A DNA stretch of 63,986 nt, filler included. It is 6 parts of 6 records of this genome, joined end to end, with 100 filler letters (N's around TTAATTAATTAA, not from the genome) between each part and the next. Parts side by side here need not be neighbours in the genome. Positions count along the whole stretch, not along the records: positions 1 to 17,625 come from DRR723986_1813; 5 more parts are not named here. One strand, written 5' to 3'. The notes under the pieces were generated by a model, which was not told the DNA's origin, ran no database searches, and saw only the letters and a program-made list of their open reading frames with translations. A program made the position numbers and the translations under genes. Positions 1 through 21,711 of this stretch are shown piece by piece (position 1 is the stretch's first letter; each line of letters opens with the position of its first letter).

Positions 1-59
1 AGCTCGTCGTCTTTGGTGTCATAGGTGCCGATCACCAAGATGGTTTTATCTGCGCTCAT
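1..59 (-). CDS. Tm-1-like ATP-binding (UPF0261) family protein, 5' fragment running off the window
   Basis: Manual translation from ATG at 59 gives MSADKTILVIGTYDTKDDEL, matching the GT(Y/L)DTK N-terminus of UPF0261 proteins. ATGA overlap with the kinase stop at 56-59. Confidence 0.75.
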   Translation of the reverse strand, partial: MSADKTILVIGTYDTKDDE

Positions 60-1003
60 GCGGATCCTCCGTTTACAAACCCTTCAGCAAAAAACTGGGC
101 GGTGGCTATGGCACGCTGGCTGCGCGCAGCGGCGCCTGGTTCGCCCAGCCGGTCGATCACCCACCCCACATAGGTGAGCGCGCGCAACACCAGCATCAAA
201 TCCAGCAATTCGGGCGCCACCACGCGCCGCTGGGCGTAGCCCTGCAACAGCGCCGTGCGGATCTGGGGGTAATCGGGCGCATCGATCTGGCGCATCAAAA
301 ACGTGGCCAGCTCGAAATCGCGAAAGCCCCAGCCGCCATCGTCAAAATCGATCAGGTAAATTTGCCCGCCATCCACCAGAATATTTTCGGTAATGGCATC
401 AGCATGGATCAAGCCGTAATCCATATCGCCCGCGCGTTGCGCCAAGATCTGGCGCGCCTTGTCGCGGGCCTGCAGCAGCAGCTGGCGCTGTGGCGCGTCT
501 AAATCGGGATGCGCCCAATATGGCCCCCAAAGCGGGCGATCCCCCACCAGCCCCGCACCATCCCATGCGGGGCGCTGAAAACCCGCAGGCGGCGCCCATG
601 CATCGGATATATCATGCAGACGCGCCAGCAAGGCGCCCAATGCGCGGGCAAACCCGCAGCGGTCTGTCACCACCTCTAGCTGGCCTTGCGCCCCCAGCAT
701 CTGGCCCGGCAACCACGACAGCACATCGTATTGCACGCCCTCTATGGTTTCCACGTAATTGCCCCGGATCGAGCGTTCGGGCTGCGGCACAGCCAGGCCA
801 TGGGCGGCCAAATGCGCCATCCAATCGAGTTCCGACAAAAGCTGGGCATCGCTGCGATAGCCTGCCCGGTGTTGGCGCAGGGCAAAACGGCCCTTGGGGG
901 TATCGGCGCGAAAGACGATATTTTCACGCTGCGCGGCCAGCATAATATGGGCCGGATCCAACTGCCAAAGGGCGGCCGCGCGCAGGGGCAGGGGCGCGCT
1001 CAT
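56..1003 (-). CDS. APH/homoserine kinase type II-fold phosphotransferase (putative amino-alcohol kinase)
   Basis: 315 aa with catalytic IHADAITENIL (HxD) and LIDFDD motifs. ATGA-coupled to both neighbours. Confidence 0.85.
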   Translation of the reverse strand: MSAPLPLRAAALWQLDPAHIMLAAQRENIVFRADTPKGRFALRQHRAGYRSDAQLLSELDWMAHLAAHGLAVPQPERSIRGNYVETIEGVQYDVLSWLPGQMLGAQGQLEVVTDRCGFARALGALLARLHDISDAWAPPAGFQRPAWDGAGLVGDRPLWGPYWAHPDLDAPQRQLLLQARDKARQILAQRAGDMDYGLIHADAITENILVDGGQIYLIDFDDGGWGFRDFELATFLMRQIDAPDYPQIRTALLQGYAQRRVVAPELLDLMLVLRALTYVGWVIDRLGEPGAAARSQRAIATAQFFAEGFVNGGSA

Positions 1004-2319
1004 GTAGCCAAATCGCCCATGGGCGCGGGTGGGGTTTGGGGCGCTGTTTCGGCCAAAACCGCATCCAGCGCCGCGATCATCTGATCGACATTGTCGCGCG
1101 AGAACACCATGGGCGGGCGCATTTTCAGCACATTTTTGTGCTTGCCCAGAAAATTCAGCAGCACGCCGCGCTGGCGCATGCCATTGGCCACCGCTTTGGT
1201 ATAATCGGCGGCGGGGGTTTTGCTGGTGCGATCTGTCACCAGCTCTACCCCAAAAAACAGCCCCGCACCGCGCACATCGCCAATGCTGTCATGGCGGGCG
1301 GCCAGTTCCTGCAGGCAGGATTTGGCATAGGCGCCAACCGCCTGTGCATTGGCCTGCAACCCCTCGTCTTGCACCACCTGCAGCGTGGCCATCGCCGCCG
1401 CACAAGATACCGGGTTGCCACCAAAGGTGTTGAAATAGCGGAAATTTTCGCGAAACGCATACATCGTGTCACGCGGCGCCACCACCGCGGCCACCGGGTG
1501 GCCATTGGCCATGGGCTTGCCAATGGTGACGATATCGGGGGTAAAGCCGATTTTCTCGTGCCCCCAGAAATGGCTGCCCAAACGGCCAAAGCCCGGTTGC
1601 ACCTCGTCGGCGATAATCAGACCGCCGGCACGGCGCACCACCTCGATTGTGGGGTCCAGCCAGCCTGCGGGCAGATCGGGAAAGCCTTCGTTTGCAAAAA
1701 ACGGGCACAAGATCAGCGCCGAAAACCCATGGGGCGTGGTTTCAAGATGGGCAATCTGCTGGGCCACGGCATTGGCAAAGGCCTGCGCATGGGGCAGGCC
1801 CGCCTGCCCCCCCAGCGGGCGATAGCTGTCGGGGGCGGGCACGAATGCGACGCTGTCCCAATACCCGCCCGGCGGCGGGTTTGAGCGCGACAGCTGATGC
1901 ACCGCGGTGGTGTTGCCGTGATAGGTGTGATCGGTGGCGATCACCCCGGTTTTACCCGTCAGGGCCTGCGCCATGCGCAAAGCCACGTCATTTGCCTCGG
2001 ATCCGGTGCAGCACATCAGCGCGGTGTCAAAGCTGGGGCCAAAGGTGGCGGTCAGCGCCTCGACATAATCCAAAATGCCTTCGTGCATATAGCGGGTATG
2101 GGTGTTCAGCGTGGCGGCTTGCTGGGCGATGGCCTGCACCACCTTGGGGTGGCAATGGCCCACATGCGGCACGTTATTGTAGCAATCAAGGTATTTGCGC
2201 CCTTGGGCATCCCACAGCCACACGCCCTGCCCCCGCACCAGATGCACGGGATCTTCGTAGAAGGTCGACATATTCGGCCCCAACAGGCGGGCGCGGCGGG
2301 CCTCTAAGGTTTCGCTCAT
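1000..2319 (-). CDS. Class III PLP aminotransferase-fold enzyme, AGXT2L/phospho-lyase subgroup
   Basis: YLDCYNNVPHVGHCHP, ADEVQPGFGR, PLP-lysine DIVTIGKPMANG and YFNTFGGNPVSCA resemble ethanolamine-phosphate and phosphohydroxylysine phospho-lyases. Confidence 0.85.
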   Translation of the reverse strand: MSETLEARRARLLGPNMSTFYEDPVHLVRGQGVWLWDAQGRKYLDCYNNVPHVGHCHPKVVQAIAQQAATLNTHTRYMHEGILDYVEALTATFGPSFDTALMCCTGSEANDVALRMAQALTGKTGVIATDHTYHGNTTAVHQLSRSNPPPGGYWDSVAFVPAPDSYRPLGGQAGLPHAQAFANAVAQQIAHLETTPHGFSALILCPFFANEGFPDLPAGWLDPTIEVVRRAGGLIIADEVQPGFGRLGSHFWGHEKIGFTPDIVTIGKPMANGHPVAAVVAPRDTMYAFRENFRYFNTFGGNPVSCAAAMATLQVVQDEGLQANAQAVGAYAKSCLQELAARHDSIGDVRGAGLFFGVELVTDRTSKTPAADYTKAVANGMRQRGVLLNFLGKHKNVLKMRPPMVFSRDNVDQMIAALDAVLAETAPQTPPAPMGDLAT

Positions 2320-3800
2320 AGCTGGATCCAGGCGGTTTTCAGATCAAAGTATTTATCAAAGGCATGCAGCGATTTGTCATGCCCGTTCCCCGATTGCTTG
2401 GTGCCACCAAGGGGCACGGTATTATCGCTGCCACCATAGGTGTTGACATGTATCACACCCGCCTTGATGCCCGCCACCATGCGATGCGCGCGCGATAGGT
2501 TCGATGTCCATACACCCGCGGCCAGCCCGTAATCTGTGGCATTGGCCAGCGCCAGCGCCTCGGCCTCGGTGTCAAAGGCGGTGACGGCCAGCACCGGGCC
2601 AAACACCTCGTGGCGGAAAACCCGGTCTTGGGGGCCCACGCCGGTGAGAATGGTGGGCTGCATGTAATAGCCGCCGGTTTCTTTCAAAATCTGCTGACCA
2701 CCCAGCGCCACATCTATGCCAGCTGCACGCGCCTCGGCCACAAAGCCCAGATTGCCCTGCAGCTGGCGCGCCGAATTGATCGCGCCCACCTGAGTGCCAG
2801 GCGCCAGCGGGTCGCCCACGCGCAGGGCTGCCGCAGCCTGGGCCAGCATTTCGACAAATTGATCATGCACGCCACGCTGCACCAACAGGCGCGATCCGGC
2901 CACGCAGACCTGGCCCGAGTTTCGAAAAATACCCATGGCGCTGACCTGCGCGGCCTGTGCCAGATCGGCGGTATCGTCAAACACGATATTGGGCGATTTG
3001 CCCCCCAGCTCTAGATACACCCGTTTCAGATTTGAGCGCGCCGCGTATTCCAGCAGCCGCCGCCCCACGCCGCCCGAGCCGGTGAAGACCAGCACATCAA
3101 CATCATGGTTCAGCGCCAGCGCCTCGCCGGTGATCTGGCCGGGGCCTGTGACCACGTTGAACACGCCATCGGGCAGGCCGCATTCCTGGCAGATTTCGGC
3201 CAACCGCAGCAAGGCAAGCGAGGCGGTTTCAGCCGGTTTCAGCACCACAGAATTGCCCGCAGCCAATGCCGGGGCAATTTTCCACGCGCCTATCATCAGC
3301 GGAAAGTTCCACGGCACAATGGCGCCCACCACGCCCACAGGCTGGCGGTGCACCAGGCCCAACACATCAGGGGCGGTGGGGGCAATTTCGCCATAGATTT
3401 TATCCAGCGCCTCGGCGTAATAGCGAAAACTGCCCGCGGCCGAGCCCGGCTCGGCCTTGAGCGCCATGGCCAGTTCGGTGCCATTGTCGCGCACACCCAA
3501 AACCGCCAGTTCCAACGCCTCGGCCTGGATGCGATCGGCGATTTTCAGCAGCACCGCCTTGCGTTGGGCCGGGGCCATGCGCGCCCAGCGCCCATCATCA
3601 AAGGCCCGGCGCGCCGCCGCACAAGCCCGCGCCACATCGCCGGCATCGGCGGTTTCCAGCGTGGTTAGTTTTTGTCCGTCGATGGGCGAGATAACATCGA
3701 GCGGCGCGCCCGCACCTGTTTGCCACGTTCCGTCAATAAAAAGTTTCTGCGCCGCGATAGATGCGCCTCGAAGCGCGTCGATGCGTGTTTGATCGCCCAT
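2316..3800 (-). CDS. NAD-dependent aldehyde dehydrogenase (PuuC-like)
   Basis: PWNFP, FTGS, LELGGKSP, catalytic GQVC, EVFGP; C-terminal DKSLHAFDKY..LKTAWIQL typical of the PuuC subgroup. Confidence 0.9.
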   Translation of the reverse strand: MGDQTRIDALRGASIAAQKLFIDGTWQTGAGAPLDVISPIDGQKLTTLETADAGDVARACAAARRAFDDGRWARMAPAQRKAVLLKIADRIQAEALELAVLGVRDNGTELAMALKAEPGSAAGSFRYYAEALDKIYGEIAPTAPDVLGLVHRQPVGVVGAIVPWNFPLMIGAWKIAPALAAGNSVVLKPAETASLALLRLAEICQECGLPDGVFNVVTGPGQITGEALALNHDVDVLVFTGSGGVGRRLLEYAARSNLKRVYLELGGKSPNIVFDDTADLAQAAQVSAMGIFRNSGQVCVAGSRLLVQRGVHDQFVEMLAQAAAALRVGDPLAPGTQVGAINSARQLQGNLGFVAEARAAGIDVALGGQQILKETGGYYMQPTILTGVGPQDRVFRHEVFGPVLAVTAFDTEAEALALANATDYGLAAGVWTSNLSRAHRMVAGIKAGVIHVNTYGGSDNTVPLGGTKQSGNGHDKSLHAFDKYFDLKTAWIQL

Positions 3801-5284
3801 TTTTCTTCCCTAAGCTCCTTACGATCCAGCCAGACACGGCGGAAATGCAGCGCCAAAACGCCCAAGATCATCACAAACAGAATAAAGGCGATGGGCCGGT
3901 CGATGAAATCCAGCGGGCTTTTCACCCGCGCCATGCCAGCGCGCAGCTTCACCTCCATGATACCGCCCAAAACCATACCCAGAATAATCGGCACCGAAGG
4001 CAGCGAGAGGCGTTTCAGCACGAAACCGATCAGCCCAAACACAGCCGCAATGATGCAATCTGTCACCGAATTGCGCAGGCTATAAACCCCCACAAAACTA
4101 AGGGTCAAAATGCAAACGCCCAAAAACCTGTTGGGCAGCTTCACAACCCGTATCAAATGGTTCGTGGCAAACAGCAAAAAGACCAAAACCAGCACATTCA
4201 ACAGCAGCAACGCCAGATAGAGTGCCACAACGAATGGCATATCGTTTTGAAACAGCTGCGGCCCCGGCACCACGTTATGCACATAAAAGACCGACAGCAT
4301 CATCGCCGTCAGCGCCTCGCCGGGAATGCCCAGCGCCAACAAGGGCACCATAGCGGCGGCTGGCACCGCGTTATTCGATGTTTCGGCCGCAATCAGCCCC
4401 TCGGACGAGCCCTGGCCGAAATCTTCGGGCCGTTTCGAGGTTTTTTGCGCATAGGTGTAGGATAAAAACTGCGCGGTAAATTCGCCAACCCCGGGGATCA
4501 TGCCCATCAGCACGCCAAAGCTGGCCGATACGGTGGCCACACGCGGGTGGCGTGCCAATTCGCGCAAGCCCTGGAACAGCCCGCCTTTTAGCTTGGTGAT
4601 GCGGGTCTTTTCATCTTCGCCCTGCAACAGATAAAAGGCCTGACTTAGCGCAAACAGCCCCAGCACCACCACAATCAGGTTGATGCCCGAAGACAAAAAC
4701 GCCTGATCGAATGTGTAGCGCTTGGTGTATTTCACCGCCTCTAGCCCGATCGAGTTAATGAAAATGCCAAAACAGGCCAGGGCCGCGGCAATCAGGGTTT
4801 GGCGACGATGCGCCGTGACCACCAGAATAATGCCCAAAAGCGCTGCCAGAAATATCTCGCGGCTGCCAAACATCGGGGCGATACGGGCCAGGATCGGGGC
4901 AAAGAAAATCAGGCAGAGCACCGAAAAGATGCCACCAAAAAACGAGGCAGAATAGGCCAGGCTAAGCGCCCGGCGCGCCTCGCCGCGGCTGGTCATCGGG
5001 AAGCCGTCATAGGTGGTCAGCGCGTTGACAGCCGTGCCCGGCGTGTTGATCAAAATCGCCGGAATAGCACCGCCATACATTGAACTGCCATAGATGCCCA
5101 ACAGCACGGTCAGCCCAACAATCGGGTCCATGCTAAAGGTGGCGGGCAGCAAAATGGCAATCGCCACCGCAGGGCCCACGCCGGGGATGGCACCAATCAA
5201 CACCCCCCCGACCGAGCCGGTCAGCAGCGCCAAAATCACATCCCATCGCATCAAGATTTCGATGCTGGCAAGAAAAACGTCCAT
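3665..5284 (-). CDS. tctA: Tripartite tricarboxylate transporter permease TctA (apparent C-terminal read-through into the ALDH gene)
   Basis: Multi-TM protein with G.LIGAIPGVG, INTPGT, AAETSNNA and LALGIPG motifs. Overlaps the ALDH gene by 136 bp. Confidence 0.88.
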   Translation of the reverse strand: MDVFLASIEILMRWDVILALLTGSVGGVLIGAIPGVGPAVAIAILLPATFSMDPIVGLTVLLGIYGSSMYGGAIPAILINTPGTAVNALTTYDGFPMTSRGEARRALSLAYSASFFGGIFSVLCLIFFAPILARIAPMFGSREIFLAALLGIILVVTAHRRQTLIAAALACFGIFINSIGLEAVKYTKRYTFDQAFLSSGINLIVVVLGLFALSQAFYLLQGEDEKTRITKLKGGLFQGLRELARHPRVATVSASFGVLMGMIPGVGEFTAQFLSYTYAQKTSKRPEDFGQGSSEGLIAAETSNNAVPAAAMVPLLALGIPGEALTAMMLSVFYVHNVVPGPQLFQNDMPFVVALYLALLLLNVLVLVFLLFATNHLIRVVKLPNRFLGVCILTLSFVGVYSLRNSVTDCIIAAVFGLIGFVLKRLSLPSVPIILGMVLGGIMEVKLRAGMARVKSPLDFIDRPIAFILFVMILGVLALHFRRVWLDRKELREEKWAIKHASTRFEAHLSRRRNFLLTERGKQVRARRSMLSRPSTDKN

Positions 5285-5292
5285 TTTGGCCC

Positions 5293-5823
5293 CTAGAAAT
5301 TCAGGATGAAAAAGCTGCGCAATCCACCGGGCAGGTATTCGTAAACCGCAGCACCCGGGATTTTGACCTGCAAGACAGCCTTAAACAAAACCACAACCAC
5401 CACCCCAAACAAGACACCGGCCCAAAGGATGGGCGCGCGGCGATAGCCCATGCGCCACAGCATCAAGGGCACAAAAGCCATTGTTACCGGCAAATAGCCA
5501 AGGCGCGGCACCAGCAACACATAGGCGATGAACCACAGCGCATATTCCAAGGGCTGGGCCCAAATGCGCGCCTCGTTCAGATCGGTGCGCTGCGGGCGGC
5601 GGCGCGGCAAGCGCCACAGGTGCAAGCCCCCAAACAGCACCATCCCCCCCAGCCCAATGGCGGGCCAGAACCGGGGTTGGGCAAAAAATGCCGTTTTCTT
5701 TACCCATTTTGTTTCTTGGCCTATCTGCGACAGCAAGACTGCCGAAAAAGCCAAAAAGCCAAGTGCAAAGATAGTTTGACCGCTGATGCGGCCAATGAAC
5801 CTGCGCTGTTCAGGCGTGCTCAT
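5293..5823 (-). CDS. tctB: TTT small membrane subunit TctB
   Basis: 176 aa, about 4 TM segments, PRFWP and LGY motifs, located between tctC and tctA. Confidence 0.8.
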   Translation of the reverse strand: MSTPEQRRFIGRISGQTIFALGFLAFSAVLLSQIGQETKWVKKTAFFAQPRFWPAIGLGGMVLFGGLHLWRLPRRRPQRTDLNEARIWAQPLEYALWFIAYVLLVPRLGYLPVTMAFVPLMLWRMGYRRAPILWAGVLFGVVVVVLFKAVLQVKIPGAAVYEYLPGGLRSFFILNF

Positions 5824-5850
5824 TTACCAAAGGCCCTACAAGATAGGCAT

Positions 5851-5872
5851 GGGCCGGGGCATGCCCCGGCCC
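5851..5872. repeat. Perfect 22-bp GC-rich palindrome between tctC and tctB (likely mRNA-stabilising hairpin)
   Basis: GGGCCGGGGCATGCCCCGGCCC is its own reverse complement; no U-tract follows. Confidence 0.6.
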
Positions 5873-5879
5873 TGCCGAA

Positions 5880-6821
5880 TTAGTTCAGCATGGCACCAAT
5901 GCGGGCCACGGTTTCAATGTCTTTGGCCACACGCGCGGCGCTGTCTTCGGCGCCCTGCCAATAGACCAGCGCGCCGGTTTCTTTGGCAATCGCCTGCGCC
6001 CGATCGCTGGTGACGGTTTTTTGCGCCACTTTGATGATCTTTTCGCGCACGTCTTGGGGGGTGTCTTTGGTCACAAACAGCCCGTTCCACAAGGCGATAT
6101 CAAGGTTTGCGTCTACCTCGCCCGCGGTGGGCGCATCAGGCACCAGCGAAATACGCTCGTCGGTGATCGACACCAGAACCTTTACCTGATCCAGGCAGGG
6201 CAGGATCAGCTGTAGGGTTGTGTTGATCACATCTGCATCGCCCGAGGCCAGCGTGTTGCAGTCCAGCGCATCAAAGGCGGCATCGCTGCCCCATTCAAAG
6301 CCTTTGGAAACCGCCAATGCCTTGGTCACTTGCGTGGGCGTCAGCGGGTCGCCGAAATGGCCCAGGGCCACGTCGTTGTTTTTGGCATAGGCGGCCAGCT
6401 CTTCCATGTTGGAATAGGGCGCATCACCCTTTGTGGCGATGACGAAAGGATAGGTCAGGAAAATACCCAGCGGGTCAAAGCGCGCGGGCGTCAGCTCGTC
6501 GATGCCAATCTGATGGCCCACAACCGGCACACCGATCACGAAAGAGCCGATGGTGTAGCCATCTGCCGGGGCCTGCGCCACCTCGATTGCACCGGGGAAG
6601 GGGCCGCCGCCGCCGCCGGGCTTGTTCACCACAGCTGCGGATACACCGTATTCGGCCTGGAAATCTTCGGCGATCATCCGGGTCAGGACATCTTCCAAAT
6701 CACCGGGGGGCCAGGGCACGATAAAGCTGACCGGCTTCTCGGGGTATTCAGCCACAGCAGCACCGCCCATGGCCGCCATTGCCACAGCCAGCGCACCGCC
6801 CAAAAGCGTATTGAGTTTCAT
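5880..6821 (-). CDS. tctC: TTT periplasmic substrate-binding protein TctC
   Basis: Signal peptide, YPEKPVSFIVPWPPG, VVNKPGGGG and ADGYT motifs. ATG at 6821 is preceded by a GGGAGA RBS. Confidence 0.88.
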   Translation of the reverse strand: MKLNTLLGGALAVAMAAMGGAAVAEYPEKPVSFIVPWPPGDLEDVLTRMIAEDFQAEYGVSAAVVNKPGGGGGPFPGAIEVAQAPADGYTIGSFVIGVPVVGHQIGIDELTPARFDPLGIFLTYPFVIATKGDAPYSNMEELAAYAKNNDVALGHFGDPLTPTQVTKALAVSKGFEWGSDAAFDALDCNTLASGDADVINTTLQLILPCLDQVKVLVSITDERISLVPDAPTAGEVDANLDIALWNGLFVTKDTPQDVREKIIKVAQKTVTSDRAQAIAKETGALVYWQGAEDSAARVAKDIETVARIGAMLN

Positions 6822-6852
6822 TTTCTGTCTCCCTGTTAACATTTTGCTGGTC

Positions 6853-6913
6853 GGTTCATTATTTGAACCATTGGTTCTAATTCAGATTGACAGATGGCTT
6901 GTATTTCTGTCAA
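6853..6913. promoter_or_regulatory. Divergent promoter region with inverted repeats (candidate IclR operator)
   Basis: GGTTCA-N5-TGAACC (6853-6869), GAACCA-T-TGGTTC (6865-6877) and TTGACAGA-N11-TCTGTCAA (6887-6913; a TTGACA on each strand). Confidence 0.5.
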
Positions 6914-6998
6914 CACGTTTAAAAGCCAAACCATAAATTTACGGCCCAGCCCCCTGCGCTGCGCCGCAAACCGCCCAAAAACAAGGCCCTAAAAGACG

Positions 6999-7769
6999 AT
7001 GGGAACTGTCACTAAAGCATTGCAGCTGCTAACACTTTTTAGCCGCGCACAGCCTTTGATCGGCCTAAGCGACATGGCGCGCCTTGCGGGTATGAACAAG
7101 GCCAGCGTGCACCGGATGCTGGGCGAATTGCAGGCGGCAGGATTCGTGGAACAGGTGGGCAGCGGGCGGCAGTATCGGCTGGGCCCGGTCTATATGCGGC
7201 TGGCAGCATTGCGCGAACACGCGGTGCCGCTGCGCGATGTTGTGGGCGCGGTGCTGCAGCAGCTGTGCGATGAAACCCAGGAAACCGCGCATTTTTCGCT
7301 GCTGCAGGGCACGCAACTGGTGGCCACAACCCATGCCTATAGTCCCCATCATGGCACCCGCGTCACCATGGAAGACGCGCAAATTCTCACGCTGCATGGC
7401 ACCTCGTCGGGCCTGGCGGTGCTGGCCTATGCCAGCCCGGATTTTGCGCGCGCGGTGCTAGAGGCCCCGCTGCCGGCACGCACGAAACACACCATCACCA
7501 ACCCAGACGAGCTGCGCGCCAAGCTGGCGCAAGTGCAAAAAAATGGCATCGCCGAATCGATCAGCGGCTTTGAAGAAGATGTGCATTCCCACGCCGCGCC
7601 AATCTTTGATGCCCAGGGCCAGCCCTTGGGCGCCATCGCCGTGGCCGCCCCCGTGGCCCGTATGGATGACACGCTGCGCCAAACAGTGCGCCGCGCCACG
7701 CAAGAGGCCGGCCTGCACCTGACACGCCTATTGGGTGGGTTTCCGCCTGACACATACCCAACCCCTTGA
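6999..7769 (+). CDS. IclR family transcriptional regulator
   Basis: N-terminal HTH (TVTKALQLL...GMNKASVHRML); C-terminal effector domain with TSSG and AAPIFD. Confidence 0.92.
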   Translation: MGTVTKALQLLTLFSRAQPLIGLSDMARLAGMNKASVHRMLGELQAAGFVEQVGSGRQYRLGPVYMRLAALREHAVPLRDVVGAVLQQLCDETQETAHFSLLQGTQLVATTHAYSPHHGTRVTMEDAQILTLHGTSSGLAVLAYASPDFARAVLEAPLPARTKHTITNPDELRAKLAQVQKNGIAESISGFEEDVHSHAAPIFDAQGQPLGAIAVAAPVARMDDTLRQTVRRATQEAGLHLTRLLGGFPPDTYPTP

Positions 7770-7789
7770 AACCCCACGGAGACAAACGG

Positions 7790-9142
7790 ATGAAAGACGG
7801 CAACTTTTTGAAAGAACACAATGCCCGCTCCATGTGGCACCCCATGGCCCACCCTGCCGATAGCCTGGCCAACCCGCCCACCATCATCACCCGCGCCCAA
7901 GGCGTGCGCATCACCGACGTGGATGGCCACGAGGTGGTTGACGCCGTAGGCGGGCTTTGGAACGTGAATTTGGGCTTTTCCTGTCAGCCTGTGAAAGATG
8001 CCATTGCCGCCCAGCTGGATGTGCTGCCCTATTATTCTACCTTCCGCGGCACCAGCAATGACGCGGTGATCGAACTGTCAGAGGGCCTGCGCGATTTCTT
8101 TGCCCCCGATGGGCTGGTGCGTGCCTTTTACACCTCGGGCGGGTCGGATTCGGTGGAAACCGCGCTGCGGCTTGCCCGGCAATACCACAAAATCCGCGGC
8201 GAGGCGGGGCGGGTTAAGTTCCTCAGCCTGAAAAAGGGCTATCACGGCACGCATTTCGGCGGCGCCAGTGTGAACGGAAACGCCAATTTCCGCACCCAAT
8301 ACGAGCCGCTGTTGCCGGGCTGTCACCATATTCCGGCGCCCTATACCTATCGCAACCCGTTCAATGAAACCGATCCCGCAAAGCTGGCCGCGCTGTGCCT
8401 GTCGGCGCTGGAAGACGAGATCGCCTTTCAAGGTGCGGGCACCATTGCCGCGATGATCATGGAGCCGGTCTTGGGCGCGGGCGGCGTGATACCGCCCCAT
8501 GAAAGCTTTATGCCCGGCGTGCGTGCGATCTGCGATCGCCACGGCATTTTGCTGATTGCCGACGAGGTGATCACCGCCTTTGGCCGCACCGGTAGCTGGA
8601 CAGGCAGCCGCCACTGGGGCGTGCAACCCGATTTGATGTGCACCGCCAAGGCCATTACCAACGGCTATTTCCCGTTTGGCGCTGTGATGATTTCAGGCGC
8701 CGTGGCAGAGGTGTTTGAAAACGATCGCAGCGGCGCGGCGGCCATTGGCCACGGCTATACCTATTCAGGCCACCCGGTGGGGGCGGCGGCCGCCATTGCG
8801 TGCCTGGCCGAAACGCAGCGGCTGAACGTGCCAGAAAACGCCGCCGCCCGCGGGGCGCAACTGTTTGCGGGGCTGCAGGGGCTGCAGGAAAAATACAGCG
8901 TCATCGGCGATGTGCGTGGCGGCCATGGGCTGATGTGCGCGCTAGAGCTGGTGGCCGATCGCGGCACAAAAGCGCCCATCGACAAAGCCGTGATCGGGCG
9001 CGTGCAAGAGGTGGCCTATCAGGCAGGCGCGATGGTGCGGGTCTCGGGGAATAATATCATCATGTCGCCGCCGCTGGTGCTGAGCGCCCAGGATGTGCAG
9101 GTGATTTTGGCCGCCCTAGACGCAGGGCTGGCCACAACATAA
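7790..9142 (+). CDS. Class III (omega-amine/polyamine:pyruvate-type) aminotransferase
   Basis: DAVGGLWNVNLG, SGGSDSVE, YHG, ADEVITAFGRTG and TAKAIT motifs. ATG at 7790 follows GGAG. Confidence 0.88.
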   Translation: MKDGNFLKEHNARSMWHPMAHPADSLANPPTIITRAQGVRITDVDGHEVVDAVGGLWNVNLGFSCQPVKDAIAAQLDVLPYYSTFRGTSNDAVIELSEGLRDFFAPDGLVRAFYTSGGSDSVETALRLARQYHKIRGEAGRVKFLSLKKGYHGTHFGGASVNGNANFRTQYEPLLPGCHHIPAPYTYRNPFNETDPAKLAALCLSALEDEIAFQGAGTIAAMIMEPVLGAGGVIPPHESFMPGVRAICDRHGILLIADEVITAFGRTGSWTGSRHWGVQPDLMCTAKAITNGYFPFGAVMISGAVAEVFENDRSGAAAIGHGYTYSGHPVGAAAAIACLAETQRLNVPENAAARGAQLFAGLQGLQEKYSVIGDVRGGHGLMCALELVADRGTKAPIDKAVIGRVQEVAYQAGAMVRVSGNNIIMSPPLVLSAQDVQVILAALDAGLATT

Positions 9143-9150
9143 GGCCAAGC

Positions 9151-9180
9151 AAAAAGCCGGTGGCGCCTAGGCGCCGCCGG
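9151..9180 (-). terminator. Putative intrinsic terminator at the ferredoxin stop
   Basis: Minus strand CCGGCGGCGCC-TA-GGCGCCACCGG followed by CTTTTT, between convergent genes. Confidence 0.5.
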
Positions 9181-9478
9181 GCACCTGCAACACCAGCCCA
9201 TCCAGCGCTGGGTCGGCGATGATCTGGCACGAAAGCCGCGATTGCGCGGTGCGCGGGGCCTCGACCGCATCGAGCATGGCGTCTTCGAAATCGTCCAGCG
9301 CGGGCAAGGCGGCCGCGGATTGGACGTAGACGTGACAGGTGGCGCAGCTGAGATTGCCGCCGCATTCCCCCAAAACCCCAGGCACATTATGCGACACGGC
9401 CGCCTCCATCAAATTGGTGCCGGCGGGAACGGTTGCGCTGATTTCGCGGCCATCGGGCAAAACCCATGTGACATTCAT
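9167..9478 (-). CDS. 2Fe-2S ferredoxin (putidaredoxin/adrenodoxin type)
   Basis: GECGGNLSCATCHV and SRLSCQ; 103 aa. Confidence 0.92.
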   Translation of the reverse strand: MNVTWVLPDGREISATVPAGTNLMEAAVSHNVPGVLGECGGNLSCATCHVYVQSAAALPALDDFEDAMLDAVEAPRTAQSRLSCQIIADPALDGLVLQVPGGA

Positions 9479-9532
9479 TGATCTATCCTTTCAAAGTGCT
9501 GCGCAGGTGGCGGGCGGCCATGCCTGCGGCGC

Positions 9533-9553
9533 GAGTATTTTTAGCAAGATGAA
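9533..9553. repeat. Short intergenic repeat, copy 1
   Basis: GAGTATTTTTAGCAAGATGAA; near-identical copy at 13625-13646. Confidence 0.6.
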
Positions 9554-9563
9554 GGGGAAGGGG

Positions 9564-10853
9564 TTAAAGGAACCAAACGTAGAAATCGCGCAGCTGATCG
9601 CCCTCGAGATCTTTGGTTTTCTTTACCTCTTTTTCCTTCATGAAGATGTGGTTGTCGCACAATTCCTGGCCCACAGCCTGTTGCAGGGCGGTATCGGCGC
9701 GCAGATCTGACATGGCCTCTTTCAGGCTGATGGCGGCGCTGTCTTTGGCATCCCATTTCTCGAACCCATCGCCGGTTTCGATGGGGCCCAGCGTGTAGCT
9801 ATTTTGAACGCCCAGACGCGCCGCCTGCAAGACCGCGGCAACCGCGATATAGGGGTTTGACGAGGCATCGGCCATGCGGTGTTCAAGCCGCGCCTTGGCG
9901 CCACCCTCGGTAGAGATGCGGGTGGTGACATTGCGGTGATCGCCGCCCCAGTTGCACAAAAACCCCGAGAGCGAGCCGGGCTGCAGGCGCTGATAGCTGT
10001 TGGCGGTGGGCGCCACCAACCCTGCCAAGCCGCGGTGATGGTGCATCAGCCCCGCGATACACCCACGGGCCAGATCATTCATGTGATCGGGGCCGCCCTT
10101 TGGCCCCGAGGACAGGGCATTGGCGCCTTGGGCGTCGGTAAAGGAGAAATTGATATGCATCCCCGAGCCACCCGCCTGGGCGATGGGCTTGGGCAAAAAG
10201 GTTAAAACAACGCCATGTTCCAACGCAATTTCCCGCGCCATCAGGCGAAACAGCACGATGGCATCCACCGCCTTGAGCGCATCATCGAAGGTGAGGGTGT
10301 ATTCAAATTGCGGGCTGTCATATTCGGTGGTGATCATATCGAGGGAAAAGCCCAGCTCGCAGGCTTTTTCCCAAATGGCATCGTTAAACCGCAGCGGATC
10401 GGAAAAGGGGCCGGTGCCATAGACATGGGCGCCGGGCGTGTCATAGGGGGTGAGGCGGCCGTTTTCATCGGCGACAAGCGCGAAAGCCTCGAGCTCGATT
10501 CCCACTTTGGGCGACAGGCCCATGGCCTGCCAATCGGCCACGGCACGTTTGAGCGCGCCACGCCCGCAGAGCGGCAGCGGCTGGCCTTCGGTATCGTAGA
10601 GATCGCCGATCACGATCTTGGTGTTGCGATCCCAGCTGTCGCGGATGTTTTCGGCCTGCCAGTGCAATTCCATATCAGGCAGGCCCTGCATCATCATCGC
10701 ACCGGGCGCATCGAGCAGGTCTTTATCGTAATGCACACCGAAATTAGACCGGCAAAACCGGGTGGTGGCATCGGTGATTTTAGAGGCGGGCAGGTATTTG
10801 CCGCGTAAGATGGACAAATGATCGCAAAACAGTGCGCGCAGGCGTTCGGGCAT
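9564..10853 (-). CDS. Glutamine synthetase-like gamma-glutamyl-amine ligase (PuuA/IpuC type)
   Basis: GIELE, EYDSPQFE, KPIAQAGGSGMHINFS, NSYQRL and RLEHR motifs. True start is ATG 10853 with an AGGAGA RBS; the ORF-track extension overlaps the P450. Confidence 0.85.
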   Translation of the reverse strand: MPERLRALFCDHLSILRGKYLPASKITDATTRFCRSNFGVHYDKDLLDAPGAMMMQGLPDMELHWQAENIRDSWDRNTKIVIGDLYDTEGQPLPLCGRGALKRAVADWQAMGLSPKVGIELEAFALVADENGRLTPYDTPGAHVYGTGPFSDPLRFNDAIWEKACELGFSLDMITTEYDSPQFEYTLTFDDALKAVDAIVLFRLMAREIALEHGVVLTFLPKPIAQAGGSGMHINFSFTDAQGANALSSGPKGGPDHMNDLARGCIAGLMHHHRGLAGLVAPTANSYQRLQPGSLSGFLCNWGGDHRNVTTRISTEGGAKARLEHRMADASSNPYIAVAAVLQAARLGVQNSYTLGPIETGDGFEKWDAKDSAAISLKEAMSDLRADTALQQAVGQELCDNHIFMKEKEVKKTKDLEGDQLRDFYVWFL

Positions 10854-10909
10854 GGGGATCTCCTGTTGGGCGGCCAAGATCTGATGTCTTGATCCGGGAA
10901 AAGGGCCGA

Positions 10910-12166
10910 TTAGGCCAGCGTGACACGGACGGGCAAAGATTTCAGCCCGCCCACAAAATTCGAGCGCAAAAACTGATAGGGGCCTGCCGGTTCGATCGCG
11001 GTGATGCGGCGGGCCAGCTCCTGGAACAGCACCCGCACCTCGAGCCGGGCCAGCCACATGCCAAGGCACACATGCGGGCCGCCCTGGCCAAAGGACATAT
11101 GGCGATTGGGGCTGCGCGCCAGATCTACCTGGAAGGGGTTTTCAAACACGGTTTCATCGCGATTGGCCGAGGAAAACCAGAAAAGCACCTTGTCGCCTTC
11201 GCGGATGGTGCGGCCGTGGGCGGTGACATCTTGGGTGGCGGTGCGGCGGAAATAAAGCGCAGGCGTGGCCCAACGAATGATTTCATCTGGCGCGGTTTCC
11301 CAAATATCGCCCTGTTGCATCTGCGCCAACAGCCCCGGCTGATGGGCCAGCGCCTGAATACCTGCGGCGATGGAATAGCGCGTGGTATCGTTACCTGCCG
11401 CCACCAGAAGACAGAAAAAATTGCGAAACTCTTCTTCGGTGATGCGGCTGCCATCTTTGCCAGGTTCGCGAATGAGATGCAGCACGCCTGACGTGTCGCC
11501 GGCGGATTCCTTCTGCGCCATCAGCTCTTTAGCGTATTGATAAAGCTCGGCCCCGGCGGGCGAGTTGAACGGCATCATGCGAAATTCATCGGTGGTCATG
11601 CGATCGAGCACATGATCGGTAAAATCAGGGTCGGTGTTGGCGATCAGCGCGTCGCCCTTTTCCACCAGCCACGGCAAATCGGCGTCGGGCGTGCCAATGA
11701 TACGGCCCAGCATGCGCATGGGCAATTGCCGCGCGATGGTGCGTGTGGCGTCAAACTCGTGCGATTGCAGGACTTCATCCAGAATTTCGGTGCAAAGGGT
11801 GCGGATTTCGGCCTCGAATTGATCGATCACGCCTTTGGAAAAGGCGCGCGCCACCTTGATGCGGGTTTGCATATGCTCGGGCGGATCGGTTTCCTGAAAG
11901 GTGCGGCGCGCCAGATATTCCTCGTAGGTCTGGTCCTCCATCCGGATACCGCGCGCCGATGAAAACACGGCAAAATTGCGGTTCATCTCGGTGATATCGG
12001 CATGGCGGGTGATCGACCAAAACCCCTGCCCATCGGCGTAGTCTGTCCAATGCACCGGGTCTTCGCGGCGCAGCCGGGCGAATGTGTTATGCGGGGCGCC
12101 GGCCACAAAAGTATCGTGGCTGGTCAGATCGGCATAGCCATCGTCATTTGGAACCCAGACTGTCAT
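10910..12166 (-). CDS. Cytochrome P450
   Basis: Heme motif FGQGGPHVCLG, I-helix AAGNDTT, ExxR (EIIR), DPPEH; 418 aa. Confidence 0.95.
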   Translation of the reverse strand: MTVWVPNDDGYADLTSHDTFVAGAPHNTFARLRREDPVHWTDYADGQGFWSITRHADITEMNRNFAVFSSARGIRMEDQTYEEYLARRTFQETDPPEHMQTRIKVARAFSKGVIDQFEAEIRTLCTEILDEVLQSHEFDATRTIARQLPMRMLGRIIGTPDADLPWLVEKGDALIANTDPDFTDHVLDRMTTDEFRMMPFNSPAGAELYQYAKELMAQKESAGDTSGVLHLIREPGKDGSRITEEEFRNFFCLLVAAGNDTTRYSIAAGIQALAHQPGLLAQMQQGDIWETAPDEIIRWATPALYFRRTATQDVTAHGRTIREGDKVLFWFSSANRDETVFENPFQVDLARSPNRHMSFGQGGPHVCLGMWLARLEVRVLFQELARRITAIEPAGPYQFLRSNFVGGLKSLPVRVTLA

Positions 12167-12232
12167 ATTCTACCCTTTCCTTAACTTGTTTTGTATATTA
12201 TATGATGCTATAAATATGTAAAGGGAAATAGC

Positions 12233-12940
12233 ATGCGCTTGGCGATCTTGATGGCAAACACGGATGTGTCCGACTTTGCGCGCGGGCATCCAGATGATGG
12301 GCAAAAGTTTTCAGCCCTGATTGCCACTGTGCGCCCCAAATGGGATTGCACAGTATTCTTGGCACGCGACGGTGAATTTCCCGAAAATTTAGATGCGTTT
12401 GATGGGTTTCTTGTAACGGGCAGCCCTGCATCGGTGCATGATGGGCATGGCTGGATTGGCCAGCTAGAGGGGATGCTGCGCGCGATTGTTGCGCAAAAGC
12501 GCCCCTTGTTTGGCGCCTGTTTTGGCCATCAGCTGATTGCACAGGCGCTGGGGGGCACGATTGGGCCAAACCCGGGCGGCTGGGTGCTGGGCCGCGAAAC
12601 CACACACATAACCGCGCGCCCCCCCTACATGGCGGCGCTGCCAGATGTGCTGAACCTATACGCCGCCCATGTCGAGCAAATCACCACCCCACCCCCGGGT
12701 ATCGAGGTGCTATGCGGCAATGCGGCCTGCCCGATTGGCGGCTTTGCCATGGGGCGCCATGTATATACCACACAATATCACCCAGAAATGCAGCCCGGGT
12801 TTATTGCCGCGCTTACCCAGCATCTCGAGGGCAAACTGCCGCCAGAGGTGATTGAACAGGCGCGCGCCTCGTTGCAACAACAGGCCGACACGATGGCCTT
12901 TGCCGAAAGCATTGCCGCGTTTTTTGAGCAGGCGCGCTAA
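12233..12940 (+). CDS. Class I glutamine amidotransferase-like hydrolase (putative gamma-glutamyl-amide hydrolase)
   Basis: TGSPASV, nucleophile elbow GACFGHQ and QYHPE triad. Confidence 0.88.
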   Translation: MRLAILMANTDVSDFARGHPDDGQKFSALIATVRPKWDCTVFLARDGEFPENLDAFDGFLVTGSPASVHDGHGWIGQLEGMLRAIVAQKRPLFGACFGHQLIAQALGGTIGPNPGGWVLGRETTHITARPPYMAALPDVLNLYAAHVEQITTPPPGIEVLCGNAACPIGGFAMGRHVYTTQYHPEMQPGFIAALTQHLEGKLPPEVIEQARASLQQQADTMAFAESIAAFFEQAR

Positions 12941-13587
12941 TCAAGAACGGCCAGCAGATCCATGGCGGTCAGCTGATCAAACTGCACATGCGCAGCCATG
13001 GCCTGTTCGGCCGCATCGGGATCGCGCGCCAAGATCAGCGTGGTGATCTGGCGATGTTCGCGTGCCGAACTGCCGATCACGCCTTTGTAGTGATAGCGCG
13101 CGCGATAATAGGCCATCAATTTCCGCGCATTGGTTTTGATCATGTCCAGCAAAAACGGGTTGCAGGCGGCATCGGCCACTGCCGCATGATAGGCCATATT
13201 CAGCTGATAATAGGCATCGGGGCGGGCATCGCCATGGGTGGCGGCATGGGCCTCGCAGGCGGCGGTTGCGGCCTCGATACGGGCGGCATGCCCGGCCGAT
13301 AGCCGCCGCGCCGCCAGCCCTGCGGCCTGACCTTCAAGCTTGGCGTGCACCTCGAGAATGGCCAAAAATTCTGCCAGCGAGGGGCGAAAAACCACCGCCC
13401 CCTTGCGTGGCAACCGTTGGATAAGCCCGGCCGCTTCCAGCTGGATAAACGCCTCGCGCACAGGCGTGCGCGAGACGCCATGCGCCTCGATCAGCGCGCC
13501 CTCTTCGATCAGCTTGCCCGGTGTCAGGCTGCCATCTTCGATGGCACCAAGAATGGCCGCGATGATGATATCCGTCTGTCCTGCCAA
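12937..13587 (-). CDS. GntR family (FCD) transcriptional regulator
   Basis: wHTH GVSRTPVREA; FCD domain with N..YH and EH motifs. Confidence 0.9.
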   Translation of the reverse strand: MAGQTDIIIAAILGAIEDGSLTPGKLIEEGALIEAHGVSRTPVREAFIQLEAAGLIQRLPRKGAVVFRPSLAEFLAILEVHAKLEGQAAGLAARRLSAGHAARIEAATAACEAHAATHGDARPDAYYQLNMAYHAAVADAACNPFLLDMIKTNARKLMAYYRARYHYKGVIGSSAREHRQITTLILARDPDAAEQAMAAHVQFDQLTAMDLLAVLD

Positions 13588-13624
13588 ATCTTTGCCCGTC
13601 CACGCCTGGGGAAATGTTGGGTTT

Positions 13625-13646
13625 GAGTATATTTTAGCAAGATGAA
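13625..13646. repeat. Short intergenic repeat, copy 2
   Basis: GAGTATATTTTAGCAAGATGAA, same orientation as the copy at 9533-9553. Confidence 0.6.
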
Positions 13647-13691
13647 ATTATGCAATATGCGATAAATTCCGTCGTATCCCCAATCCAGCCC

Positions 13692-14465
13692 CTAGCCACG
13701 GCTTTGCCACAGCGCCACCGTATCGCGGGCGGCGCGGGCCAGCATCACCACATCGATGCCCACCGCCAGAAATTGTGCGCCCCATTTAGCATAGGTTTGG
13801 GCGGTTTCATCATCAACGGCCAGAATGCCCGCAGCCTTTGGGCTGGCCGCGATTGTGGCCAGGGCCTGCTGGATAGCCGCGGCCACGGGTGCTGCGGCAG
13901 ATTGCCCGGGATAGCCCAGATCGGCGGCCAGATCGGCGGGGCCGATGAACACGCCATCTACCCCCTCGACCGCCAGGATGGCATCGAGGTTTTCCAGCCC
14001 CGCGCGGGTTTCCACCTGCACCAGCAGGCACATTTGATCATTCGCGGTTGTGACATAATCGGGAATGGCCGAAAATTCAGAGGCGCGCGCCAAGGCCGCC
14101 CCTGCCCCGCGCACGCCCTGTGGCGGGTAGCGCATGGCGCGCACCAGATCCTGGGCTTGTTCCGCGCTTTCGACCATCGGGATCAGCAAGGTTTGCGCCC
14201 CGGCATCAAGCACCTGTTTGATCGCCCAGGTTTCGCCCATAGGCAGGCGCACCACCGGGTGGCTATGCGCCCCTTTCATCGCCACAAGCTGCGCCATGAT
14301 GGTGCGCAGATCGTTTGGGGCGTGTTCGCCATCGATCACCAGCCAGTCAAAGCCCGCGCTGGCCAGCACCTCGGTTGGATAGGGGTCGGCAAACCCGGCC
14401 CAGCAGCCGATCAGCCGCTGGCCTGTGGCAAGGCGGTGCTTGAAACTGTTTACTGGGGCAGGCAT
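13692..14465 (-). CDS. HpcH/HpaI class II pyruvate aldolase
   Basis: GFDWLVIDGEHAPND, VRAMRYPPQGVRG, QVET and DGVFIGPADL motifs. Confidence 0.9.
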   Translation of the reverse strand: MPAPVNSFKHRLATGQRLIGCWAGFADPYPTEVLASAGFDWLVIDGEHAPNDLRTIMAQLVAMKGAHSHPVVRLPMGETWAIKQVLDAGAQTLLIPMVESAEQAQDLVRAMRYPPQGVRGAGAALARASEFSAIPDYVTTANDQMCLLVQVETRAGLENLDAILAVEGVDGVFIGPADLAADLGYPGQSAAAPVAAAIQQALATIAASPKAAGILAVDDETAQTYAKWGAQFLAVGIDVVMLARAARDTVALWQSRG

Positions 14466-14468
14466 GGC

Positions 14469-15887: not shown

Positions 15888-15974
15888 TGCACCGCCCCCT
15901 TGATCATGATGTTTAACATGACAAGTAAACCAGCCGGGCCAGATGGGCAAGCCCGGCCTTGGGGTGCGGCGCCA

Positions 15975-16178: not shown

Positions 16179-16181
16179 GTC

Positions 16182-20034: not shown

Positions 20035-20204
20035 TGGACAACTCTTTGTATTGGGGCCGGGCATTAGGGCTAGAGTAACCCCGCCGAGACGGAGTATACA
20101 CGGTGCCATACATGTTCAGGCTTGTCCGCTGGCGTCAAGAGCGGGGCAGCCAGATGAGGACAGAGACCGCATAGCATGTGGTCGTTTGAGCAGGAGAGTG
20201 CGCG

Positions 20205-21704: not shown

Positions 21705-21711
21705 ACGCGGA

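Follow-up and report, generated by a model that had tools for sequence, protein, structure and literature searches.

Bacteria that use ethanolamine or aminopropanol, and mammals that break down hydroxylysine, can remove the nitrogen of a vicinal amino alcohol through a kinase, a phospho-lyase and an aldehyde dehydrogenase (ALDH). For example, Veiga-da-Cunha et al. reportedly described in 2012 a hydroxylysine kinase together with a 5-phosphohydroxylysine phospho-lyase, and Mallette and Kimber are said to have described in 2018 an aminoacetone and 1-amino-2-propanol pathway in the Mycobacterium smegmatis RMM microcompartment. Aromatic amines are also degraded by bacteria: in Pseudomonas tyramine and dopamine are catabolized via 3,4-dihydroxyphenylacetate using amine oxidases or dehydrogenases. 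Activities named octopamine and synephrine "dehydratase", which dehydrate directly, have no gene to our knowledge. In this study we analyze an operon at one end of a stretch of DNA of 63,986 nucleotides (the window), which encodes an APH-fold kinase (KIN), a class III pyridoxal phosphate (PLP) enzyme (LYA), an ALDH, a tripartite tricarboxylate transporter (TTT) and the start of a UPF0261 protein, and which lies divergent from genes for an IclR-family regulator and an omega-transaminase (AT2).

We propose, with a probability of about 0.5, that this operon handles the amines in a funnel that would carry phenolic arylethylamines to (3,4-di)hydroxyphenylacetate and from there into homoprotocatechuate meta-cleavage. 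Homology and genomic context together suggest that the operon represents known chemistry in a new and widespread setting. The original prediction had called the pathway a candidate undescribed one, a label that is not supported for the chemistry in view of the ethanolamine, aminopropanol and hydroxylysine routes named above. A limited literature search, which is not proof that nothing has been published, returned no description of this cluster or of an octopamine-deamination gene.

The kinase and phospho-lyase pair and its conservation

When compared with all PDB sequences, LYA matches the "phospholyase" 5g4i (3.5e-115) and human ETNPPL 6tor (2.9e-105), two enzymes that use phosphoethanolamine, and the next match after the phospho-lyases is a dialkylglycine decarboxylase at 5.4e-54. 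The segments NNVPHVGHCHP and GKPMANGHP of LYA align with both structures (NNV.HVGH.HP and GKPM.NGHP), with the PLP lysine of GKPMANGHP aligned to GKPMGNGHP in 5g4i and 6tor. Two motifs that had been cited earlier, YLDCYNNVPHVGHCHP and YFNTFGGNPVSCA, are likewise both present in the LYA translation. The top NCBIfam match of LYA is to the C-terminal part of NF004799 (587-1012 of a model of about 1000 residues) at 509 bits. By sequence comparison the proven phospho-lyases are far nearer to LYA than is any transaminase, decarboxylase or racemase of its fold. The best PDB match of KIN is 6ef6 (4.6e-27), whose PDB title reads only "aminoglycoside phosphotransferase" and which we take to be the M. 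smegmatis (S)-1-amino-2-propanol kinase. The KIN translation contains IHADAITEN and IDFDD, of which HADAITEN corresponds to the catalytic loop H.D....N and IDFDD to the D.D motif that binds metal. A predicted enzyme logic in which a kinase is followed by a PLP-dependent step that eliminates phosphate and ammonia is supported by these assignments.

Conservation of the pair was assessed with a LYA scan of one genome per species, from which 80 of 598 confirmed candidates form the locus set; genes were counted by tblastn with the window proteins, and UPF0261, AT2 and ALDH were counted at 50% identity or more. KIN lies directly downstream of LYA in 75 of the 80 loci, 74 of them found by script and one (L017) with overlapping matches. 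Of the five loci that lack it, L022 and L046 are short contigs, and the other three (L045, L052, L054) group in a clade of their own. The proposed order of kinase, phospho-lyase and ALDH is upheld by the placement of LYA in the phospho-lyase clade with KIN as its direct neighbor, and the co-conservation of the kinase and PLP genes in other genomes is borne out by the same count. The wider cluster is less uniform in composition: UPF0261 occurs in 37 of the 80 loci, AT2 in 35, ALDH in 33, IclR in 36 (inside the fetched flank) and TctA in 22. We call a locus extended if it has one or more of UPF0261, AT2 and ALDH; there are 40 such loci, and 28 of them have all three. Gene orders include the window type, an order in which ALDH is shifted beside AT2, a rhizobial order IclR-UPF0261-HAD-AT2-LYA-KIN, and others. 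Because the same genes recur jointly and in several orders in 40/80 related loci, the window arrangement is not a matter of chance, and the variation in order between lineages favors shared function over inherited synteny.

The named relatives of LYA belong to Rhodobacterales (74-84%). LYA also matches many rhizobial plasmids, of which one, R. leguminosarum pRL9b4, was confirmed to carry the full cluster. On the R. pomeroyi DSS-3 megaplasmid (NC_006569.1 392691-399119) the order is AT2 | ALDH-LYA-KIN-UPF0261 (SPO_RS21615-21635); no TTT or IclR gene occurs within 9 kb, the upstream side has a DMT transporter and a winged-helix regulator, and the kinase carries the annotation "homoserine kinase". 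Shimia aestuarii also bears the cluster.

Given the near-obligate partnership with a kinase (75/80 loci), we regard it as quite unlikely that LYA is not a lyase and instead transaminates or otherwise alters an aromatic amine, with both kinases acting on other intermediates, for example in phenol phosphorylation only. Reaction type is not certain from sequence in class III, a family that includes decarboxylases, racemases and the non-phospho lyase PbfA. Yet there is a wide score gap between LYA and all non-lyase structures, and the cluster already has a dedicated omega-transaminase. A passage of PMC8154272 describes PbfA as an (R)-1-hydroxy-2-aminoethylphosphonate ammonia-lyase that eliminates water without prior phosphorylation. 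The PbfA NCBIfam model gives LYA 206.5 bits, under its cut-off of 525.

The other 40 loci of the set were examined through ten samples, eight of which were scanned with Pfam. In four of them (L008, L010, L037, L060) LYA and KIN are the sole cluster genes, and their surroundings are of the housekeeping kind, with pncB, pncA, a gene of the RF-1-domain (arfB-like) type and a Vut_1 transporter among them; in L014, too, the pair has no other cluster gene beside it. With the pair at about 10000-12300 of these loci, pncB is near it in L008, L010 and L037 and pncA in L008 and L010; an RF-1-domain gene is found near the pair in L008 and L037, and the Vut_1 transporter in L014, L037 and L060. A FastTree phylogeny of 77 lyases was built after four rows whose tblastn segment contained a stop in frame, L014 among them, were dropped. 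Twenty rows in which a lyase and kinase pair sits in a housekeeping context form a clade (support 97) that contains no extended locus and that includes the lyases of L008, L010, L037 and L060. The remaining pair-only rows interleave with extended rows, and for at least five of them the contig is short or truncated (L022, L046, L049, L051, L065). The paralogous pair of the housekeeping loci probably acts on a different, housekeeping substrate.

These pairs bear on an explanation that we consider unlikely, in which KIN and LYA turn ethanolamine or 1-amino-2-propanol into acetaldehyde or propionaldehyde, ALDH produces the acid, and the aromatic genes belong to a separate amine pathway that has only its regulation in common with them. 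Lone lyase and kinase pairs are indeed common in housekeeping contexts, the nearest solved relatives are of the phosphoethanolamine phospho-lyase type (5g4i, 6tor) and include 6ef6, an aminopropanol kinase, and the APC permease found in rhizobia belongs to a superfamily that includes ethanolamine permeases, although it matches that model weakly. However, the housekeeping clade does not include the cluster-type lyases, translational coupling links the pair to ALDH and UPF0261 in the window, one locus (L083) holds the pair inside an operon of homoprotocatechuate (hpa) genes, and enrichment of hpa genes is confined to the extended-cluster loci.

Homoprotocatechuate genes and a predicted arylethylamine funnel

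Neighboring genes were counted in the fetched flanks of the 40 extended and the 40 other loci. Among the extended loci, a HAD phosphatase occurs in 21, an HpaD-type extradiol dioxygenase in 11, an FAA-hydrolase-family protein in 11, an APC permease in 10, and HpaI, a group II PLP decarboxylase resembling DOPA decarboxylase, and a DAO-GCV_T protein that resembles a dimethylglycine dehydrogenase (DMGDH-like demethylase) in six each; a TMADH-like flavoprotein is an addition in two extended loci. Among the 40 pair-only loci the count for each neighbor type is 0 or 1, besides three weak matches to SDR proteins. Curated models confirm a number of the neighbors, including HpaD (TIGR02295, 408.7 bits versus a cut-off of 321.4), LigB-type HpaD (HpaD_Fe, TIGR02298, 446.9 versus 315.95), HpaH (383 and 376.9 versus 351.5) and HpaR (125.4 and 128.4 versus 121.2).

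Whole islands are seen in five regions around UPF0261 that were fetched from other genomes. One locus (L082) reads hpaD-FAH-hpaH-hpaI, then amidotransferase-P450-GS-like (GS, glutamine synthetase), then AT2-IclR | tctCBA-ALDH-LYA-KIN-UPF0261. In L083 the genes tctC to tctA, ALDH, UPF0261, hpaE, hpaD, FAH, LYA and KIN follow one another in this order, all on one strand. The deposited annotation of R. leguminosarum pRL9b4 has IclR, a Tm-1-like (UPF0261) gene, HAD-IA, two "aminotransferases" (AT2 and LYA) and a phosphotransferase; one flank of this cluster carries a 4-hydroxyphenylacetate 3-hydroxylase-like (hpaB-like) gene and a flavin reductase, and the other carries hpaR, CHM isomerase, hpaE, hpaD, a pyridoxal-dependent decarboxylase, gabD, an FAA-family hydrolase, hpaH and hpaI.

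The association extends to the level of whole genomes. Five cluster genomes whose fetched loci are free of hpa genes all have HpaD above the cut-off (5/5), in two cases just beyond the fetched stretch. Of five genomes that have a pair-only locus, HpaD is found in one (G008), which is also the only one with an NF002676 UPF0261, 17 kb apart from it. We additionally scored 201 genomes sampled from the family of one genome (G002) for matches to the NF002676 and HpaD profiles. NF002676 is present in 71 and HpaD in 66 of them; 58 genomes have both, 13 NF002676 only, 8 HpaD only and 122 neither, which gives an odds ratio of 68 with a Fisher p of 9e-29 when shared ancestry is ignored. UPF0261 and HpaD lie no more than 27 kb apart in 11 of the 58 genomes that have both. 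A LigB-type HpaD (TIGR02298) is found in 6 of the 13 genomes with UPF0261 only, in one of them 2.5 kb from UPF0261.

In the funnel that we favor, tyramine and dopamine, which have no side-chain hydroxyl, would be converted to the arylacetaldehyde by AT2, and dopamine may itself be formed from L-DOPA via the nearby decarboxylase. Octopamine and noradrenaline would enter by a second route, in which KIN phosphorylates the benzylic hydroxyl and LYA eliminates phosphate and ammonia from the phospho-arylethanolamine to give the same arylacetaldehyde. We assign the beta-hydroxylated arylethylamines to KIN and LYA because transamination cannot yield that aldehyde. ALDH would then oxidize the arylacetaldehyde to 4-hydroxy- or 3,4-dihydroxyphenylacetate, and degradation would be completed by HpaBC and HpaD-I encoded elsewhere. 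The TTT system may import some member of the funnel, perhaps a carboxylate such as L-DOPA or hydroxyphenylacetate. Where loci contain DMGDH-like or TMADH-like genes, N-methyl amines such as synephrine and adrenaline would be demethylated first, because N-methyl amines form no Schiff base with PLP. The DAO + GCV_T variants indeed suggest N-methylated substrates. A gene of this type, 830-850 aa long, adjoins UPF0261 in six loci (L030, L043, L048, L055, L023, L041); L030 and L043 also have the TMADH-like OYE/Pyr_redox flavoprotein, and L048, L055 and L041 have a PurU-like formyl-THF deformylase.

The UPF0261 protein would be a second, MarK-type ATP-dependent kinase, with a phenolic hydroxyl as its possible target. 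The assignment of the last gene of the operon to UPF0261 relies on orthologous loci, as only 19 codons (MSADKTILVIGTYDTKDDEL, ATG at 59-57) fall inside the window. These codons are nearly identical to the N-terminus of the orthologous UPF0261, and the full-length gene after the kinase in the orthologous loci has PF06792 and PF23189 and reaches 647.3 bits with NF002676 against a cut-off of 556. The relevant passage of PMC12624787 (2025) reports that MarK, a member of UPF0261, is an ATP-dependent kinase for acetovanillone and other phenolic monomers, which gives the UPF0261 family at least one known function. The orthologue matches the MarK structure 9mpy at 3.9e-56, and Lys16 of the DTK motif lies within the window's UPF0261 codons at the position of MarK E16K and Tm-1 K20. 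The MarK ligand residues G195, H219 and H304 were considered as a clue to substrate and set aside, for they are kept in the UPF0261 orthologue but equally in Tm-1. MarK His348, which binds the ketone, is Trp in the orthologue.

A UPF0261 kinase and a HAD phosphatase occurring together suggest a transient phosphate. An extension of the funnel to adrenaline-like amines, which we regard as doubtful, is a "protect, activate, eliminate" route in which UPF0261 phosphorylates the phenol, KIN phosphorylates the benzylic hydroxyl, LYA eliminates and the HAD phosphatase found in 21/40 extended loci is the proposed remover of the protecting phosphate. The phenol phosphate would avert quinone-methide collapse of the benzylic phosphate and could keep the electron-rich ring off PLP; its stabilizing effect on the benzylic phosphate is chemically sensible but conjectural.

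The remaining enzymes help to weigh the funnel against the substrates named in the original prediction. ALDH has its best PDB matches in 5iuu, 5iuv and 5iuw (1.4e-151), which we take to be indole-3-acetaldehyde dehydrogenase, and reaches no NCBIfam equivalog, the succinate-semialdehyde models included; its best score is to PuuC, 525.8 bits against a cut-off of 850. The best structures for AT2 are omega-transaminases (PDB 5lh9, 1.7e-138). AT2 had been proposed to transaminate the product after ALDH, a step that does not suit an amine:pyruvate omega-transaminase type (NF005683, 5lh9); a parallel entry for non-hydroxylated amines appears to fit the sequence assignments better. The transporter gene set in the window is complete (TctA, TctB and TctC; PF01970, PF07331, PF03401), and TctC has its best PDB match in BugD (2f5x, 5.1e-27), a protein that binds aspartate. 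From the type of transporter, a carboxylate (L-DOPA or hydroxyphenylacetate) is the best candidate for the TTT ligand. An APC-family permease takes the place of the TTT in rhizobia, in Hydrogenophaga and in one Rhodobacterales metagenome-assembled genome.

The original prediction had a candidate substrate, 5-hydroxylysine or 4-amino-3-hydroxybutyrate (GABOB), imported by the TTT, phosphorylated, eliminated, oxidized and transaminated. TTT binding proteins typically bind carboxylates, BugD being the closest solved homologue of TctC, and the kinase and lyase logic resembles that of the hydroxylysine kinase and 5-phosphohydroxylysine phospho-lyase (PHYKPL) pair mentioned in a passage of PMC8154272. 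However, gene context in the 40 extended loci leads us to reject both substrates: no lysine or 2-aminoadipate gene was seen among the neighbors examined, and no lysine, aminoadipate or gamma-aminobutyrate (GABA) catabolic gene recurs, while hpa, DOPA-decarboxylase-like and some N-demethylase-like genes do. The sole gabD seen lies inside an hpa operon, whose own product is succinate semialdehyde. Additionally, ALDH is below the succinate-semialdehyde and all other equivalog cut-offs, AT2 is of the amine:pyruvate omega-transaminase type and not an alpha-amino-acid transaminase, and an APC permease substitutes for the TTT in rhizobia and others. We therefore consider this version very unlikely.

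A further explanation has the amino alcohol made in the cell, where a GS-like enzyme would gamma-glutamylate an arylethylamine, a P450 would beta-hydroxylate it, an amidotransferase-like protein would deglutamylate it, and KIN and LYA would then deaminate it, which would do away with the need for a beta-hydroxy amine from outside. The three genes lie together at 9564-12940 of the window, and homologues sit beside AT2 in L017, L056 and L082; in a fourth locus (L002) only the GS-like gene is present. These three types of enzyme are also found in the isopropylamine-to-alaninol (Ipu) pathway, whose gamma-glutamyl-amine hydroxylation logic the trio resembles. Nevertheless, we hold this explanation to be improbable, as the GS-like gene occurs in only 3/40 and the P450 in only 2/40 extended loci, all three proteins stay below the curated equivalog cut-offs, and the route would spend ATP and reductant on a job that AT2 could do directly. 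The trio is possibly an accessory gamma-glutamyl-amine hydroxylation module. Since the called GS-like and P450 open reading frames (ORFs) overlap by 160 nt, one of the two starts is probably wrong.

Several points weigh against the arylethylamine funnel. The ligand of the TTT is its weakest point, in that TTT systems are known for carboxylates and amines would be atypical ligands. The characterized relatives of LYA and KIN use small aliphatic substrates, and because Tm-1 keeps G195, H219 and H304 too, these residues are silent on the substrate of UPF0261. In the window, the first 30 kb hold no HpaD homologue and the HpaI-like gene is 17 bits below its curated cut-off (351.3 versus 368.8), and the R. 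pomeroyi copy of the cluster has no hpa gene within 9 kb. Among the 201 genomes, neither HpaD type was found in 7 of the 71 with UPF0261, and 8 have HpaD without UPF0261; the TIGR02298 search covered the UPF0261-positive genomes only, and the Fisher p value overstates the association because phylogeny is uncorrected. The decarboxylase was tried as a discriminator and rejected, as it is present in 5/5 cluster genomes but also in 4/5 of the genomes with a pair-only locus. Family placement, gene coupling, co-conservation and the hpa association are observed features of these loci, and from them we infer the substrates and reactions of the funnel.

If the funnel operates as proposed, then a phosphorylate-then-eliminate trick for vicinal amino alcohols has been recruited to aromatic signaling amines, and UPF0261 has a second physiological role. 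Genes could then be named for the octopamine and synephrine "dehydratase" step, which is not known to have any. The route would also be common, given that the UPF0261 subfamily is present in 71 of the 201 sampled genomes and that many rhizobial plasmids match LYA, and it would constitute a widespread bacterial sink for catecholamines and trace amines, both in seawater and in the rhizosphere, taking up octopamine, noradrenaline, dopamine and L-DOPA from algae, invertebrates and plants.

Gene layout, candidate operator and genomic setting

Gene calls in the window are based on an ORF listing with Pfam and NCBIfam profile scans (Table 1). These scans agree with the gene list, order and strands that had been given earlier, as all genes are at their places. 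The description of a tight operon coupled by ATGA overlaps is confirmed, with a qualification for the Tct genes. The sequence has ATGA overlaps at ALDH/LYA (2319-2316), LYA/KIN (1003-1000) and KIN/next gene (59-56). The Tct genes, however, are spaced, with 56 nt between TctC and TctB and 8 nt between TctB and TctA, and the TctA ORF as called has a 136-nt overlap with the ALDH start that is not ATGA. This TctA has 539 aa and runs into ALDH (3665-3800), in comparison to a TctA of 507 aa in L003 that stops just before ALDH; the overlap may be genuine, or it may stem from a read-through tail or from an error in the sequence. The HpaI-like, decarboxylase-like and monooxygenase-like genes of the window are located 4.5-8.4 kb away from AT2.

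Table 1. Features of the locus, with positions counted along the window.
Feature	Position	Strand or location	Profile or structure match
UPF0261 (Tm-1-like / MarK family) gene start, 19 codons	59-1	minus; continues past window edge	
KIN, APH-fold small-molecule kinase, 315 aa	1003-56	minus	PF01636, 105.4 bits (cut-off 23.2)
LYA, class III PLP enzyme, phospho-lyase clade, 439 aa	2319-1000	minus	PF00202, 260.5 bits
ALDH, NAD(P)-dependent aldehyde dehydrogenase, 494 aa	3800-2316	minus	PF00171, 534.6 bits
TctA, large TTT membrane subunit, 539 aa	5284-3665	minus	PF01970, 431.1 bits, above cut-off
TctB, small membrane subunit	5823-5293	minus	PF07331, 58.5 bits, above cut-off
TctC, periplasmic binding protein	6842-5880	minus	PF03401, 64 bits, above cut-off
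Palindrome GGTTCATTATTTGAACC, candidate IclR operator	6853-6869	tctC/iclR intergenic	
IclR-family regulator	6999-7769	plus, divergent from operon	PF09339 + PF01614
AT2, omega-(amine:pyruvate-type) transaminase, class III, 458 aa	7766-9142	plus	NF005683, 746.7 bits (cut-off 575)
Glutamine-synthetase-like ligase	9564-11069	minus	Pfam + NCBIfam
Cytochrome P450	10910-12166	minus	Pfam + NCBIfam
Class I amidotransferase-like protein	12233-12940	plus	Pfam + NCBIfam
GntR regulator	12937-13587		
HpaI-like 4-hydroxy-2-oxoheptanedioate aldolase	13692-14465	minus	PF03328; TIGR02311, 351.3 bits (below cut-off 368.8)
Aromatic L-amino-acid (DOPA) decarboxylase-like	14469-15950	minus	PF00282, 316.2 bits; PDB 7xin "DOPA decarboxylase", 1.6e-117
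FAD-dependent aromatic-ring monooxygenase-like	16182-17558	minus	PF01494; NF006002, 679.9 bits (cut-off 416)

The tctC/iclR palindrome is the single match in the window, where 0.13 would be expected at no more than one mismatch. GGTTCA-N5-TGAACC occurs exactly, and once each, in 21 of 87 fetched loci, all of which are extended loci from Rhodobacterales and Rhizobiales, and it adjoins iclR at every coordinate that was compared (L003, L031, L087). On the basis of this distribution the element is a good candidate for the IclR operator, and in the funnel IclR would govern the divergent promoters, probably via this palindrome.

More than 0.9 of sampled words of 56-9142 are found in DNA runs of six marine or seawater metagenome studies, in which one sample is possibly the source of the window, and 0.24-0.52 of them are found in RNA-library runs of three studies. 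Contigs of four RNA-library runs from the three studies match 1-17600 in parts, with an identity of at least 95% and with the uncovered stretches being uninformative, and one of these contigs (X16 record 18) covers 962-2584, over the KIN/LYA and LYA/ALDH junctions. The RNA-library contigs are not proof of expression because a contig cannot establish one continuous transcript and because DNA may have been carried over.

Base composition of the window falls from about 0.60 GC to about 0.47 (0.45-0.51) at around 30.5-31 kb and recovers at around 53 kb. The DNA of low GC in between (30500-53500) codes for housekeeping proteins, namely RNase E, ThiG, AccC, Aat and class II RNR, and also for a GGDEF-EAL protein; its AccC is nearest to Kordiimonas among named proteins (84-88%). 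No tRNA genes were found in the window. The cluster lies either on horizontally acquired high-GC DNA or in a chimeric contig, and in both cases its identity is unaffected, but the assumption of a Rhodobacteraceae host is unsafe. Within the high-GC part, 17784-24702 codes for UDG, a TrpD-like and a TrpG-like protein, a 467-aa ORF, a methyltransferase, an AstE/AspA-family protein and a chorismate-binding protein, and the chorismate-binding ORF (306 aa) seems truncated compared to the usual anthranilate synthase component I.

Comparison with known systems

The closest described enzymes are ETNPPL (6tor) and the bacterial phospholyase 5g4i/5g4j, which have the same class III PLP fold and motifs as LYA and the same predicted 1,2-elimination to an aldehyde. 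They differ in that they act on phosphoethanolamine while LYA sits in an aromatic-amine and homoprotocatechuate context. The hydroxylysine pair shares with the operon an APH-fold kinase that feeds an AGXT2L-type lyase to yield aldehyde, ammonia and phosphate; compared by context, the operon has no lysine genes nearby but does have a UPF0261 kinase, an omega-transaminase and a transporter. The RMM pathway is similarly ordered, with an amino-alcohol kinase followed by a phospho-lyase and then an aldehyde dehydrogenase. Its substrate is aliphatic and it is housed in a microcompartment, whereas the context of the operon differs and no shell genes were seen in it.

PbfA is like LYA in being a class III PLP enzyme that forms an aldehyde from a vicinal amino alcohol by 1,2-elimination, as is predicted for LYA, and is unlike LYA in that the passage of PMC8154272 describing it gives it no kinase partner. 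MarK of Novosphingobium aromaticivorans (PDB 9mpy), as presented in the passage of PMC12624787, belongs to the same domain family as the last gene of the operon and has the ATP-site lysine in common with it. The UPF0261 protein of the operon differs in its NCBIfam subfamily (NF002676), in the replacement of His348 by Trp and in having no acetovanillone carboxylase genes nearby. Finally, the amine routes of Pseudomonas share the predicted end points of the operon, which are arylacetaldehyde, hydroxyphenylacetate and homoprotocatechuate meta-cleavage. Compared to these routes and to the orphan dehydratases, the operon is predicted to reach the same end points by ATP-dependent phosphorylation followed by PLP-dependent elimination.

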